Positions 60 to 14,439 of a stretch of DNA of 64,000 bases are shown one piece after another (within the stretch, counting starts at the first letter, position 1; every line of letters begins with the position of its first letter). The stretch is from assembly GCF_055900595.2 (NCBI RefSeq), contig NZ_CM148325.1; one strand, given 5' to 3'. The notes below the pieces were generated by a model, which searched no databases, was not told where the DNA came from, and worked only from the letters and a program-made list of their open reading frames with translations. Position numbers and translations under genes: made by a program.

Positions 60-892
60 TGTTTGCAGTTTCTTCCAGACGCGTGCTGCCGGGCTTTACC
101 TTAAGCCTCGGCACCAGTCTGCTGTTTGTGTGCCTGATTTTGCTGCTGCCGCTCTCCGCACTGGTGATGCAACTGGCTCAGATGAGCTGGGCGCAGTACT
201 GGGAGGTGATCACCAACCCGCAGGTGGTCGCGGCCTATAAAGTGACGCTGCTGTCGGCGTTTGTGGCATCGATTTTTAACGGCGTTTTCGGCCTGCTTAT
301 GGCGTGGATTTTAACCCGCTACCGCTTTCCGGGTCGCACGCTGCTCGATGCGTTGATGGATTTACCCTTTGCGCTGCCGACGGCGGTCGCAGGTTTGACG
401 CTGGCCTCGCTCTTTTCCGTGAACGGTTTTTACGGCGAGTGGCTGGCGAAATTTGATATCAAAGTCACCTACACCTGGCTTGGTATTGCGGTGGCGATGG
501 CCTTTACCAGCATTCCGTTTGTGGTGCGAACCGTGCAGCCGGTGCTGGAAGAGTTAGGCCCGGAATATGAAGAAGCGGCAGAAACGCTCGGCGCAACGCG
601 CTGGCAGAGTTTCTGCAAAGTGGTGCTGCCGGAGCTTTCTCCGGCGCTGGTGGCGGGCGTGGCGCTGTCGTTTACCCGTAGTCTCGGTGAGTTTGGTGCG
701 GTGATTTTTATCGCCGGGAACATCGCCTGGAAGACGGAAGTGACGTCGCTGATGATTTTTGTTCGCTTACAGGAGTTTGATTACCCGGCGGCGAGCGCAA
801 TTGCTTCGGTGATCCTCGCGGCATCCCTGCTGCTGCTGTTCTCAATTAACACTCTGCAAAGTCGCTTTGGTCGGCGTGTGGTAGGTCATTAA
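59..892 (+). CDS. cysU: Sulfate/thiosulfate ABC transporter permease CysU (CysT)
   Basis: 277-aa ORF with multi-pass membrane profile and ABC-permease EAA-like loop; recognised sequence and operon context. Confidence 0.95.
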   Translation: MFAVSSRRVLPGFTLSLGTSLLFVCLILLLPLSALVMQLAQMSWAQYWEVITNPQVVAAYKVTLLSAFVASIFNGVFGLLMAWILTRYRFPGRTLLDALMDLPFALPTAVAGLTLASLFSVNGFYGEWLAKFDIKVTYTWLGIAVAMAFTSIPFVVRTVQPVLEELGPEYEEAAETLGATRWQSFCKVVLPELSPALVAGVALSFTRSLGEFGAVIFIAGNIAWKTEVTSLMIFVRLQEFDYPAASAIASVILAASLLLLFSINTLQSRFGRRVVGH

Positions 893-1767
893 TGGCGGAA
901 GTTACCCAATTGAAGCGTTATGACACGCGCCCAATTAACTGGGGCAAATGGTTTCTGATTGGCACCGGAATGCTGGTTTCGGCGTTCATCCTGCTGGTGC
1001 CGATGATTTACATTTTCGTGCAGGCATTCAGCAAAGGGCTGATGCCGGTGTTACAGAATCTGGCCGATCCGGACATGCTGCACGCCATCTGGCTGACGGT
1101 GATGATCGCGCTGATTGCCGTACCGGTAAACCTGGTGTTCGGGATTCTGCTGGCCTGGCTGGTGACGCGCTTTAACTTCCCCGGACGCCAGTTGCTGCTG
1201 ACGCTGCTGGACATTCCGTTTGCCGTGTCGCCGGTGGTTGCCGGTCTGGTCTATCTGCTTTTCTACGGCTCTAACGGCCCGCTCGGCGGCTGGCTGGATG
1301 AACATAATCTGCAAATTATGTTCTCCTGGCCGGGAATGGTGCTGGTCACCATCTTCGTGACCTGTCCGTTTGTGGTGCGCGAGCTGGTGCCGGTGATGTT
1401 AAGCCAGGGCAGCCAGGAAGACGAAGCGGCGATTTTGCTTGGCGCGTCTGGCTGGCAGATGTTCCGCCGCGTCACGCTGCCGAACATCCGCTGGGCTCTG
1501 CTTTATGGCGTGGTGCTGACCAACGCCCGTGCGATTGGCGAGTTTGGCGCGGTGTCGGTGGTTTCCGGCTCGATTCGCGGTGAAACACTTTCGCTGCCGT
1601 TACAGATTGAATTGCTGGAGCAGGACTACAACACCGTCGGCTCCTTTACCGCCGCGGCGCTGTTGACGCTGATGGCGATTATCACCCTGTTTTTAAAGAG
1701 TATGTTGCAGTGGCGCCTGGAGAATCAGGAAAAACGCGCGCAACAGGAGGAACATCATGAGCATTGA
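892..1767 (+). CDS. cysW: Sulfate/thiosulfate ABC transporter permease CysW
   Basis: 291-aa ORF; start overlaps cysU stop (TAATG); paralogous permease profile. Confidence 0.95.
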
Positions 1768-2854
1768 GATTGCCAATATTAAGAAGTCGTTTGGTCGCAC
1801 CCAGGTGCTGAACGATATCTCACTGGATATTCCTTCTGGTCAGATGGTCGCATTGCTGGGGCCGTCCGGTTCCGGGAAAACCACGCTGCTGCGGATTATC
1901 GCCGGGCTGGAGCATCAAACCAGCGGGCATATTCGTTTCCACGGCACCGACGTCAGCCGCCTTCACGCGCGCGATCGTAAAGTCGGTTTCGTGTTTCAGC
2001 ATTACGCCCTGTTCCGCCATATGACGGTGTTCGACAATATCGCCTTCGGCCTGACGGTGCTGCCGCGTCGCGAGCGCCCGAATGCCGCAGCCATCAAAGC
2101 GAAAGTGACAAAATTGCTGGAAATGGTGCAGCTTGCGCATCTGGCGGATCGTTATCCGGCCCAGCTTTCCGGCGGCCAGAAACAGCGTGTGGCGCTGGCG
2201 CGGGCGCTGGCTGTCGAACCGCAAATTCTGCTGCTTGATGAACCGTTTGGCGCGCTGGATGCGCAGGTGCGTAAAGAGCTGCGTCGTTGGCTGCGTCAGT
2301 TGCATGAAGAGCTGAAATTCACCAGCGTGTTCGTGACCCACGACCAGGAAGAAGCGATGGAAGTCGCCAACCGCGTGGTGGTCATGAGCCAGGGCAATAT
2401 CGAACAGGCCGATGAACCGGATCAGGTCTGGCGCGAGCCGGCGACCCGTTTTGTGCTGGAGTTTATGGGCGAAGTGAACCGCTTGCAGGGAACGATTCGC
2501 GGTGGGCAGTTCCACGTTGGTGCGCACCGCTGGCCGCTGGGATACACCCCTGCGTATCAGGGGCCGGTGGATCTCTTCCTGCGCCCGTGGGAAGTGGATA
2601 TCAGCCGCCGCACCAGCCTCGATTCGCCGCTGCCGGTGCAGGTGCTGGAAGCCAGCCCGAAAGGTCACTACACCCAATTAGTCGTGCAGCCGCTGGGGTG
2701 GTATGAAGATCCGCTCACCGTGGTAATGCGTGGTGATGATGCGCCGGTGCGCGGCGATCGTTTGTTCGTCGGGCTGCAACATGCGCGGCTGTATAACGGC
2801 GACGAGCGTATTGAAACCCGCGATGAGGAACTTGCTCTCGCACAAAGCGCCTGA
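1757..2854 (+). CDS. cysA: Sulfate/thiosulfate ABC transporter ATP-binding protein CysA
   Basis: 365 aa; Walker [13 protein letters not shown] signature LSGGQKQR, Walker B LLLDEP; 11-nt overlap with cysW. Confidence 0.95.
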
Positions 2855-2875
2855 TAGGTTGAGTGAATGTTAAAC

Positions 2876-2908
2876 GCCCGGAGGCGCTTCCCGCGATCCG
2901 GGCTTTTT
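2876..2908 (+). terminator. Candidate rho-independent terminator downstream of cysA
   Basis: GC stem gcccgga/tccgggc (7 bp) followed by TTTTT, about 20 nt after cysA stop. Confidence 0.4.
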
Positions 2909-2929
2909 AATGGCAAGGTTTTGTAACCT

Positions 2930-2966
2930 GTAGGCCTGATAAGACGCGTAAACGTCGCATCAGGCA
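2930..2966. repeat. REP (repetitive extragenic palindromic) element
   Basis: gtaggcctgataagacgcg...cgtcgcatcaggca, classic REP palindromic unit in cysA-cysM spacer. Confidence 0.6.
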
Positions 2967-2988
2967 ACACCACGTATGGACAGAAATC

Positions 2989-3900
2989 GTGAGTACATTA
3001 GAACAAACAATAGGCAATACGCCTCTGGTGAAATTACAACGAATGGGGCCGGATAACGGCAGTGAAGTGTGGTTAAAGCTGGAAGGCAATAATCCGGCCG
3101 GTTCGGTGAAAGATCGTGCGGCGCTTTCGATGATCGTCGAGGCGGAAAAGCGCGGGGAAATTAAACCGGGTGATGTGTTAATCGAAGCCACCAGTGGTAA
3201 CACCGGGATTGCGCTGGCAATGATCGCTGCGCTAAAAGGCTATCGCATGAAATTGCTGATGCCCGATAACATGAGCCAGGAGCGTCGCGCGGCGATGCGT
3301 GCCTACGGTGCGGAGCTGATTCTGGTCACCAAAGAGCAGGGCATGGAAGGTGCGCGCGATCTGGCGCTGGAGATGGCGAATCGTGGCGAAGGCAAGCTGC
3401 TCGATCAGTTTAATAATCCCGATAATCCTTATGCGCATTACACCACCACCGGGCCGGAAATCTGGCAGCAAACCGGCGGTCGCATTACCCATTTTGTCTC
3501 CAGCATGGGGACGACCGGTACGATTACCGGCGTGTCGCGCTTTATGCGCGAGCAATCCAAACCGGTGGCGATTGTTGGTCTGCAGCCGGAAGAGGGCAGC
3601 AGCATTCCCGGCATTCGTCGCTGGCCTGAGGAATATCTGCCAGGCATCTTCAACGCTTCGCTGGTGGATGAGGTGCTGGATATTCATCAGCGTGATGCGG
3701 AAAACACCATGCGCGAACTGGCAGTGCGGGAAGGGATTTTCTGCGGTGTAAGTTCCGGTGGCGCGGTTGCCGGAGCACTGCGGGTGGCAAAAGCCAACCC
3801 CGGCGCTGTAGTGGTGGCGATCATCTGCGATCGCGGCGATCGCTACCTTTCTACCGGGGTGTTTGGGGAAGAGCACTTTAGTCAGGGGGCGGGGATTTAA
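2989..3900 (+). CDS. cysM: Cysteine synthase B (O-acetylserine sulfhydrylase B), GTG start
   Basis: 303 aa; PLP-dependent cysteine synthase fold with lysine motif ...GSVKDRAA...; operon position after cysA. Confidence 0.95.
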   Translation: MSTLEQTIGNTPLVKLQRMGPDNGSEVWLKLEGNNPAGSVKDRAALSMIVEAEKRGEIKPGDVLIEATSGNTGIALAMIAALKGYRMKLLMPDNMSQERRAAMRAYGAELILVTKEQGMEGARDLALEMANRGEGKLLDQFNNPDNPYAHYTTTGPEIWQQTGGRITHFVSSMGTTGTITGVSRFMREQSKPVAIVGLQPEEGSSIPGIRRWPEEYLPGIFNASLVDEVLDIHQRDAENTMRELAVREGIFCGVSSGGAVAGALRVAKANPGAVVVAIICDRGDRYLSTGVFGEEHFSQGAGI

Positions 3901-4104: not shown

Positions 4105-4839
4105 TTAATTTTCGTGTGGAAACGTAGTAAGGTCATCAATCATTTTTTGAAGTATTGGTGAGTCCTGACCATCACCCCATTGAAGAATTTTTGCGGTAAG
4201 CTGATGACGGGCTAGTGCATTGAGTCCCATCTTTTTAAGTTTATGGGAGATTTTACCCATGACTTTAATCTGACCGAATGCAGTTGCGTAGGTAATCATA
4301 TTGCTCTGGATAGTGCTCATTTCATCGGCTAGTAATTGCGCACGAATATCCTCTTCAAGAATACTTTCCATAGCGATATATTTCATACCCCAGATAGTTT
4401 CAATTAACATTTGAGGGAAATCAGCACAATCTAGATCCGGCTCTTTACGCAGGCTATTTTCAAGAACGTTTAGAGCATCAGCACCTTCATCGCTGCCAAA
4501 AGGAGATTCTTCATCCCAGCAACACACATAAAGTGGATCAGTAAAATGGCACTGGAAGTTTGGGTGTGACGTTTTAACATGTAACCCAATTTCTTCATCA
4601 TCAAAATAGTAGCGATCCATGTAGTTAAAGTTTGGATCTTCTTGATAGCCTTTCTTCATTTTTGCGGCAATCAATTTACTGGCTTCTTTCAGACACTGTT
4701 CTTCATTATCGAACTCTTTTGTCTGGAATTTACCAATACTACCTACCTTGCCATAGTTGATGGCTAAACTATCCCCTTCGTAATCTATCCACCAAAATTT
4801 ATTCGATTTTTCATCGTTATAAATAAAGCATTTTTTCAT
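4105..4839 (-). CDS. yfeS: WGR-domain protein YfeS (function unknown)
   Basis: 244-aa ORF, N-terminal FWWIDYEGDSLAINYGKVGSIG resembles WGR domain; conserved position between cysM and yfeK. Confidence 0.85.
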   Translation of the reverse strand: MKKCFIYNDEKSNKFWWIDYEGDSLAINYGKVGSIGKFQTKEFDNEEQCLKEASKLIAAKMKKGYQEDPNFNYMDRYYFDDEEIGLHVKTSHPNFQCHFTDPLYVCCWDEESPFGSDEGADALNVLENSLRKEPDLDCADFPQMLIETIWGMKYIAMESILEEDIRAQLLADEMSTIQSNMITYATAFGQIKVMGKISHKLKKMGLNALARHQLTAKILQWGDGQDSPILQKMIDDLTTFPHEN

Positions 4840-10363: not shown

Positions 10364-11125
10364 TTACCGCCACATCGCGTGTTTATCGCGATAGCAATCG
10401 ACCCACATCGCCGTCGCGCCACAAACGGCAACGGGCATAATGAACAGATTAAGCAGCGGGATCATCGTAAACAGGCTGGTTAAAGCACCAAACTGCATAT
10501 TGGTGATTTTGCGTGTGCGCAGGGCGGTGCGCATCTCTTTAAACGGCACTTTGTGGTTATCGAAGGGGTAATCGCAATACTGGATGGCTAACATCCAGGC
10601 GCTAAACAGGAACCACAGTACCGGTGCGACGGTTTGCCCAATGCCAGGGATGAAGTAAAGAATTAGCAATACAATTGCGCGCGGCAGATACCAGGCAAAT
10701 TTTTGCCATTCGCGTTTCATGATTCGCGGCACATCTTTCATGATACCGAAAATTCCGGTATCTGGCGGTGTAGCGCCAGTCAGTCTTGCTTCCAGTTGTT
10801 CAGCCAATAAACCGTTGAACGGAGCAGCAATCCAGTTAGCAATCGTTGAGAAGAAATAGCCAAACACTAACAGCACAGAGATGACAGCCAGGGGCCACAA
10901 CAGATAGCTCAGCCATTGTAACCAGTCCGGAACATAACTCATGAGAGTCGGGATCCAGACATCGAGTTGCGTAAAGAGCCACCAGAATGCGCCCCCCATC
11001 AACAAAATATTGACCAACAGCGGTAAAATAACAAAACGCCGAATCCCAGGTTGCGAGACGAGCTTCCAGCCTTGCGCAAAATAGTAAAAACCGCTGCGTG
11101 GGGCAGATGTGAATGATGAAACCAT
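10364..11125 (-). CDS. cysZ: Sulfate transporter CysZ
   Basis: 253-aa multi-pass membrane protein; conserved position between cysK and zipA. Confidence 0.93.
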
Positions 11126-11354
11126 AATCAGGATGAGCTCCTTTTGACCAATCCCAGGAAAATTCTGCGTATTTTACCGGGTAATTGCGCAATGGACAGT
11201 TAGGATATGTTCGAAAAAACAGCAAAAAGCACGATTTCATCTATCTTTGTGCTGTGAAAGTTAATAGTGCACTTGCACTTGAGGTAATCGGCAAATACTC
11301 TTAGTGAGTAAATGTTTGCCGTGGTGGCAAGGTGTTAGAACAACAGAGAATATA

Positions 11355-12353
11355 ATGATGCAGGATTTGCGTCTGATATTAATCATTGTTGGCGCGATCG
11401 CCATAATCGCTTTACTGGTACATGGTTTCTGGACCAGCCGTAAAGAACGATCTTCTATGTTCCGCGATCGGCCATTAAAACGAATGAAGTCAAAACGTGA
11501 CGACGATTCTTATGACGAGGATGTCGAAGATGATGAGGGCGTTGGTGAGGTTCGTGTTCACCGCGTGAATCATGCCCCGGCTAACGCCCAGGAGCATGAG
11601 GCTGCTCGTCCGTCGCCGCAACACCAGTACCAACCGCCTTATGCGTCTGCGCAGCCGCGTCAACCGGTCCAGCAGCCGCCTGAAGCGCAGGTACCGCCGC
11701 AACATGCTCCGCGTCCAACGCAGCCGGTGCAGCAACCCGTGCAGCAGCCTGCCTATCAGCCTCAGCCTGAACAGCCGTTGCAGCAGCCAGTTTCGCCACA
11801 GGTCGCGTCAGCGCCGCAGCCAGTGCATTCAGCACCGCAACCGGCACAACAGGCTTTCCAGCCTGCAGAACCTGTAGCGGCACCACAGCCTGAGCCTGTA
11901 GCGGAACCGGCTCCAGTTATGGATAAACCGAAGCGCAAAGAAGCGGTGATTATCATGAACGTCGCGGCGCATCATGGTAGCGAGTTAAACGGTGAACTGC
12001 TTCTTAACAGCATTCAACAAGCGGGCTTTATTTTTGGCGATATGAACATTTACCATCGTCATCTTAGCCCGGATGGCAGCGGCCCGGCGTTATTCAGCCT
12101 GGCGAATATGGTGAAACCGGGAACCTTCGATCCTGAAATGAAGGATTTCACTACTCCGGGTGTCACTATCTTTATGCAGGTACCGTCTTACGGTGACGAG
12201 CTGCAGAACTTTAAGCTGATGCTGCAATCTGCGCAGCATATTGCCGATGAAGTGGGCGGTGTAGTGCTTGACGATCAGCGCCGTATGATGACTCCGCAGA
12301 AATTGCGCGAGTACCAGGACATCATCCGCGAAGTCAAAGACGCCAACGCCTGA
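11355..12353 (+). CDS. zipA: Cell division protein ZipA (start trimmed to MMQDLRL; track ORF over-extended)
   Basis: N-terminal TM anchor, charged region, long P/Q-rich linker, C-terminal FtsZ-binding domain; recognised sequence. Confidence 0.93.
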
Positions 12354-12383
12354 TACACTTAAGGCAAATTAACTTATCTTCGA

Positions 12384-12406
12384 ACCCCCGCTTGTCGGGG
12401 GTTTTT
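12384..12406 (+). terminator. Candidate hairpin/terminator between zipA and ligA
   Basis: Stem acccccg/cggggg followed by TTTTT. Confidence 0.4.
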
Positions 12407-12414
12407 AGCATTGA

Positions 12415-14439
<2,025 letters not shown>

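Follow-up and report, generated by a model that had tools for sequence, protein, structure and literature searches.

ZipA and Comparable Tethers of the Divisome

Besides the linker of ZipA, other length-variable disordered tethers of the divisome include the C-terminal linker of FtsZ and the Pro/Gln-rich linker of Escherichia coli FtsK. By analogy, all three may be regarded as spacers of low complexity linking a binding module to a membrane or polymer module, and they appear alike in that the domains on either side are conserved but the spacer itself is poorly conserved in both length and sequence. They belong to different proteins, however, and the likeness is drawn here without any claim of a sequence relationship.

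In E. coli K-12, ZipA begins with a short N terminus in the periplasm, followed by a single transmembrane helix (aa 7-28) and a charged region (aa 29-85), in a bitopic, N-out topology (PMC6904479). Residues 86-185 of the 328 make up the "PQ" domain, a region predicted to lack structure and described as a flexible tether (PMC6904479, citing Ohashi et al. 2002), and the globular domain binds the C-terminal peptide of FtsZ and thereby tethers the Z ring (PMC6904479). In the literature on ZipA linker polymorphism, indels, and linker length, we found no paper that describes length alleles in E. coli.

The zipA Locus and Its Domains

The window, i.e., the whole 64,000-nt stretch of DNA analyzed here, contains a normal, intact zipA gene. 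Its coding sequence and the regions of its product are as follows:

11355..12353, + strand: zipA CDS, 999 nt, encoding 332 aa plus the stop codon (ORF and translation)
11373..11438, + strand: N-terminal transmembrane anchor, aa 7-28 (hydrophobic run; boundaries per PMC6904479)
11439..11609, + strand: charged juxtamembrane region, aa 29-85 (K/R-rich, then D/E-rich, with P+Q at most 10%; boundaries as in PMC6904479)
11610..11921, + strand: disordered linker rich in P and Q, aa 86-189 (104 aa, vs. 100 aa in K-12)
11946..12317, + strand: C-terminal FtsZ-binding globular domain (ZipA_C), aa 198-321 (PF04354)

The identity of the gene follows from its profile matches, its structural matches, and its synteny. 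The product matches the TIGR02205 septum_zipA equivalog at 416.6 bits (cut-off 119.65), covering profile positions 1-284 of 284, and PF04354 at aa 198-321 (E = 3.2e-46, 156.8 bits). Among PDB entries, the full-length ZipA 9iue aligns end to end with it (E = 1e-212), and the FtsZ-binding domain chains of 1F46, 1F47, and 1F7W align to aa 189-332. The gene is flanked by cysZ (10364..11125, - strand) and ligA (12424..14439, + strand), and both the ORFs of the window and the RefSeq annotation of matching loci give cysZ-zipA-ligA as the standard E. coli order. Gene, locus, and domain order are all the same in K-12.

The initial annotation had read ZipA as 332 codons from an MMQDL start, and this reading holds. 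MMQDL begins at codon 18 of the + strand ORF 11304..12353, trimming to ATG 11355 yields the 999 nt, and this ATG is the RefSeq start for zipA in all matching E. coli genomes. In strain E200086, whose zipA is 100% identical at the DNA level, RefSeq places both start and stop as in the window. The ORF finder began instead at a GTG 17 codons 5' of the annotated ATG (11304-11354), which is merely the earliest possible start available to it.

Within the linker, 31 P and 26 Q among 104 residues amount to 55% P+Q, and its GC content is 65% vs. 50% in the remainder of zipA. The linker was initially placed at 11580-11910, which corresponds to aa 76-185; the part that is actually rich in P and Q is aa 86-189. 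The N-terminal hydrophobic segment (about aa 5-26) is identical in K-12 ZipA. The globular domain is likewise identical to that of K-12, so FtsZ binding should be unchanged.

A G+C-rich hairpin with a 5-nt loop, GAACCCCCG / CGGGGGUUU, lies 3' of the zipA stop at 12382-12404, with a U run at the end of its 3' arm that reaches 12406. It folds at -15.5 kcal/mol (z = -3.2 vs. shuffles) and resembles an intrinsic terminator separating zipA from ligA. A consensus promoter/terminator scan of 11100-12450 returned no sigma-70-like site and a single weak terminator-like match, at a rate no higher than expected from shuffles, and missed this hairpin.

Repeats in the Linker and the 12-nt Difference from K-12

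The initial annotation described the linker as built of imperfect repeats. Short repeated motifs are indeed present: QP[VAL]QQ occurs five times, vs. 0.12 expected from 5,000 residue shuffles, QPVQQP occurs three times, and a 15-nt DNA family, CARCCNGTNCAGCAR, has five copies with 80-100% identity. Both of the peptides quoted as examples are found in the product, the 14-letter one at aa 103-116 and the 25-letter one at aa 121-145. These motifs are, however, scattered rather than arranged as a tandem array. Tandem Repeats Finder, run over 11300-12400 at its lowest threshold (score 30), found no array, and a VNTR-like array was therefore dropped as a candidate; only one imperfect 12-nt pair is present. 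This sole tandem element spans 11727-11750; the corresponding copies of the repeat family D1 are at 11721-11735 and 11733-11747, 12 nt apart. Its two halves are:

11727..11738, + strand: first 12-nt copy, GTGCAGCAACCC, encoding the extra QPVQ/PVQQ, absent from K-12 (alignments, codon view)
11739..11750, + strand: second 12-nt copy, GTGCAGCAGCCT, kept in K-12 (repeat family D1, codon view)

In K-12, zipA is 987 nt long and encodes 328 aa, the figure that the initial annotation had given when it proposed a repeat-unit indel in the linker. Alignment of the window with K-12, at both the protein and DNA level, supports that proposal: length and sequence are not identical, and there is a single gap of 4 aa or 12 nt, at 11727-11738, which corresponds to an additional QPVQ that stems from an imperfect tandem duplication of 12 nt. 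At this site, referred to below as the hot spot, a 10-residue stretch in the window stands against QPVQQP in K-12. The gap has nine equivalent placements within 11727-11746, i.e., 8 nt of microhomology, GTGCAGCA. Over the gene as a whole there are 15 nucleotide differences. Outside the linker the two proteins are identical, and within it R120, T122, and S152 of the window are replaced by H, A, and P in K-12 (R120H, T122A, S152P).

Rarer Deletion Alleles and a Proposed Mutational Mechanism

Rarer alleles were drawn from about 70 E. coli records covering less than 80% of the hot-spot query described below, and from matches to a divergent-linker query. They encode ZipA of 325 aa (N39), 321 aa (PSJ-23), and 315 aa (TUM13936), with the shortest alleles at 303 aa (PCP06021) and 295 aa (EM10-18-28). 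The deletions, of 21, 21, 51, 75, and 111 nt, are all in-frame and all fall within aa 105-159 of the linker. Every deletion junction carries 4-8 nt of exact microhomology, e.g., CAGCAGCC, GCAGCC, or CAGCCG. Four of the deletion alleles have zero or one other base difference from an identified parental haplotype, and these parental haplotypes (K-12-like, AR_0118-like, WP4-S18-like, and O157-like) differ from one another, which indicates that the deletions are recent and independent.

Across the seven length alleles examined, all differences (12, 21, 21, 51, 75, and 111 nt) are multiples of 3 nt and the C-terminal domain is intact. A phase-variable contingency locus was ruled out on the same grounds. 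The broader set of 14 E. coli alleles places all indels in the linker, together with seven of the eight amino-acid substitutions; the eighth, A83V, precedes the linker by three residues. None of the amino-acid differences among these alleles affects the anchor or the globular domain, and 12 of the 19 variable sites of the linker are synonymous in the zipA frame. One isolate with an otherwise intact gene has a linker that is 37 aa shorter, which suggests a wide tolerance of linker shortening, and strains with a ZipA of 295-303 aa could carry compensating changes elsewhere, e.g., in ftsA.

These features may be accounted for as follows. As a bitopic inner-membrane protein, ZipA uses its C-terminal globular domain to anchor FtsZ filaments to the membrane, and its linker would have to be long, flexible, and soluble while its exact sequence would be unconstrained. 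The linker draws on a small codon vocabulary (CAG, CCG, CCT, CAA, and GCG), as a result of which short direct repeats, e.g., CAGCAGCC and GTGCAGCA, are abundant in it. In-frame length variants could then arise between such repeats, either by replication slippage or by deletion and duplication mediated by microhomology, and selection would tolerate them, the filter being that they stay in frame. The microhomology at the junctions is an observation, and slippage is the mutational mechanism that we infer from it.

Linker Length in Other Escherichia and Enterobacteriaceae

A degenerate DNA pattern for the N-terminal region matched at least 120 enterobacterial zipA loci, the matches listed not including E. 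fergusonii, E. marmotae, or an E. coli type-strain representative. Among them, three other Escherichia, i.e., E. albertii, Escherichia sp. E1V33, and SCPM-O-B-8794 (labeled as E. coli), have tandem QPVQQP units where the window has its hot spot. The anchor and globular domains of their ZipA are nearly identical to those of the window. Two or three full 18-nt units are present in these genomes, whereas a single unit together with 12 nt is found in the window. QPVQQP-type units of 18 nt occur twice in E. albertii, in a degenerate form the second time (ZipA of 331 aa), twice in SCPM-O-B-8794 (320 aa), and three times in E1V33 (326 aa). Further deletions are found downstream in their linkers.

With two or three QPVQQP units in other Escherichia, the single copy in K-12 is most simply explained as a contraction. 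Judging from these three outgroup genomes (E. albertii, E1V33, and SCPM-O-B-8794), the K-12 form is thus probably the derived, contracted one. The 12-nt period in the window does not correspond to an integer number of the 18-nt units of the outgroup, and at least two events are therefore required between the forms. Two synonymous SNPs in linkage, at CDS positions 234 and 468, are common to every K-12-type allele sampled, a pattern that, in the few sequences available, would fit a single origin.

The zipA of SCPM-O-B-8794 lies on the - strand of NZ_JAATUR010000016.1, from locus position 4652. Its linker resembles that of Escherichia sp. E1V33 and not any sampled E. coli allele, and when it was searched against complete E. 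coli genomes, none exceeded 95% identity. This strain, despite its label, is probably a cryptic-clade Escherichia.

On the scale of the family, the complete ZipA proteins of 91 Enterobacteriaceae species among the matches listed have an N-terminal part (up to the anchor motif) of 66-70 aa (SD 1.0) and a C-terminal part of 135-138 aa (SD 0.6), while the linker, measured from one anchor motif to the other, is 102-154 aa long (SD 9.9). The comparable spacer in the same 91 species has a median P+Q of 47%. As far as these sequences tell, the length evolution of ZipA is confined to the tether, and the E. coli polymorphism would be a within-species view of the same process.

Several other matched loci deserve mention. 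In Photorhabdus (five loci and others), ZipA is 302-310 aa long and keeps the 13-letter anchor motif. Its aa 41-110 are charged and K/E/D/Q-rich, in contrast to the charged plus P/Q make-up in Enterobacteriaceae, and its C terminus is different; the composition of the spacer is therefore not fixed within the order. A contig assigned to "Chryseobacterium sp. 18061" (CACSKA010000009.1), a member of the Bacteroidota, contains an enterobacterial zipA and a LigA that is 91% identical to that of the window, and is most likely contamination or a mislabeled assembly. In Enterobacter sp. EA-1 (CP025776.1, locus 539-3651), zipA, ligA, and cysZ are each split by several frameshifts, which indicates an error-prone assembly rather than real pseudogenes.

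Frequency of the Two Major Alleles and the Question of Selection

The zipA gene is present in 5,425 of 5,426 complete E. coli genomes. A 151-nt query with the window allele over the hot spot matched 2,380 of the 5,426 records at 95% identity or higher (the window state), and another 3,046 fell to 80-95% owing to the 12-nt gap. The reciprocal query with the K-12 allele gave 3,078 records at 95% or higher; the identity bands classify the state of the 12-nt site and not the total protein length, and a few partial matches blur them, as seen from 3,046 vs. 3,078. Accordingly, the longer state accounts for about 44% and the K-12 state for about 56% of complete E. coli records, frequencies that describe RefSeq, where laboratory K-12 derivatives and clinical lineages are over-sampled, and not natural populations. 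Forty evenly spaced full-length matches give a similar picture: 17 span 998 nt, 22 span 986 nt, and one spans 887 nt. The long and K-12 forms are thus two major E. coli alleles, each of them common. They appear to be linked to lineage, as the long state is found in Nissle and O157:H7, and the short state in K-12, B, BW25113, and an O111:H2 strain.

We consider it highly probable that the P/Q linker is a disordered tether whose near-neutral length variants arise by slippage, with the 332-aa form of the window and the K-12 form, a 12-nt contraction, as its two major alleles. That the variants are near-neutral we infer solely from how common they are.

An alternative reading is that linker length is itself selected, i.e., that lineages adjust how far the Z ring lies from the membrane, or the dynamics between the two, and that both the 328/332 split and the short alleles are adaptive. 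The high frequency of both major alleles and their apparent tie to lineage (K-12, B, and O111:H2 vs. Nissle and O157:H7) would be expected if this were so, as would the 1.5-fold variation of linker length in Enterobacteriaceae, among the matches listed, and the concentration of non-synonymous changes in the linker. The last of these is predicted by relaxed constraint in a disordered region, however, and the linkage of SNPs to the indel is compatible with plain inheritance by descent. Moreover, four residues are about 4% of a 104-residue random coil, a change that by polymer scaling would alter the end-to-end distance by about 2%, and we expect the four extra residues to be functionally negligible. 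A 37-aa deletion also occurs in an isolate whose gene is otherwise intact. We regard adaptive tuning as improbable.

A related and more speculative idea concerns the hot spot itself. Across Escherichia it contains one unit (alone or with a further 12 nt), two, or three, and E. coli also has the rare linker deletions of 7-37 aa. The hot spot might then be a lineage-diagnostic, recurrently mutating length switch, the states of which measurably change the spacing between Z ring and membrane or the ZipA-dependent assembly of the divisome. We give this only a slim chance; if it were true, natural isolates would constitute a ready-made allelic series for tests of tether length in vivo.

The initial annotation had suggested a possibly strain-specific length of the linker. 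This proved too narrow: the length is a common, lineage-level trait, with the long state in 2,380 of the 5,426 records and a protein shared with Nissle. The RefSeq entry WP_001305210.1 (332 aa; Nissle and E200086) is identical to the ZipA of the window, and the Nissle gene differs from it at synonymous sites only (99.1% DNA identity). The whole gene is 100% identical in one record only, that of E200086, and at least 99% identical in 186, and repeat-rich, GC-rich DNA favors assembly indels, but the notion of a private mutation specific to this strain, or of an error in sequencing or assembly, behind the four additional codons has virtually no probability left and is already refuted by an in-frame indel that recurs in about 2,380 independent complete-genome records, Nissle and O157:H7 included, and yields an established RefSeq protein.

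A search of a plasmid collection with the linker as query returned five matches, consisting of three multi-Mb records, one 1.4-Mb record, and one 50-kb record, none of which is predicted to be mobilizable; these matches give no sign that the zipA linker is mobile. Chromosomal sequence deposited under the heading of plasmids probably accounts for the four larger zipA-bearing records (1.4 to 4.9 Mb). In the 50-kb record (NZ_CP098226.1), a copy of the linker at 10874-11032 spans 159 nt for a 161-nt query and has no gene listed; the 2-nt difference would be frameshifting.

Alternative-Frame ORFs over the Linker

Four long ORFs in other frames overlap the linker:

11572..11877, + strand: alternative-frame ORF, 101 aa, judged spurious (no Pfam match, codon composition, not in RefSeq)
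11581..11886, - strand: antisense ORF, 101 aa, judged spurious (no Pfam match, codon composition)
11490..11735, - strand: antisense ORF, 81 aa, judged spurious (no Pfam match, codon composition)
11762..11956, - strand: antisense ORF, 64 aa, judged spurious (no Pfam match, codon composition)

Stop-free runs of 102, 105, and 111 codons over the linker exceed the 95th percentile for the window (69 codons), and could be taken to indicate a real overlapping gene. This scarcity of stops is, however, reproduced by codon composition alone: shuffles of the zipA codons of the linker lead to 10.9 ± 2.2 alternative-frame stops, compared with 13 observed, while an equal length of the globular domain has 34 and segments of ligA have a mean of 18.7. 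The alternative-frame products have no Pfam matches and are low-complexity strings rich in R/L/S or A/G, as is typical when a sequence is read out of frame, RefSeq annotates nothing at these ORFs, and the 12 sites that are synonymous in the zipA frame, among the 19 variable ones of the linker, also speak against such a gene. An overlapping gene is thus hardly conceivable. The ORFs are by-products of CAG/CCG/GCG codon usage, as the initial annotation had assumed when it called the long ORFs on both strands spurious.

Implications

The linker is a known domain of a known protein, the allele in the window is already catalogued, and there is nothing here to surprise a specialist. The difference from K-12 matters little: E. 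coli has two common alleles of this disordered tether, and the window carries one of them. Annotation pipelines should call neither the upstream GTG as a start nor the long ORFs in other frames. Lineages could be marked in a simple way by the 12-nt indel and the SNPs linked to it. The natural series of ZipA from 295 to 332 aa shows that shortening of the tether is tolerated in viable isolates, and could guide experiments on linker length.
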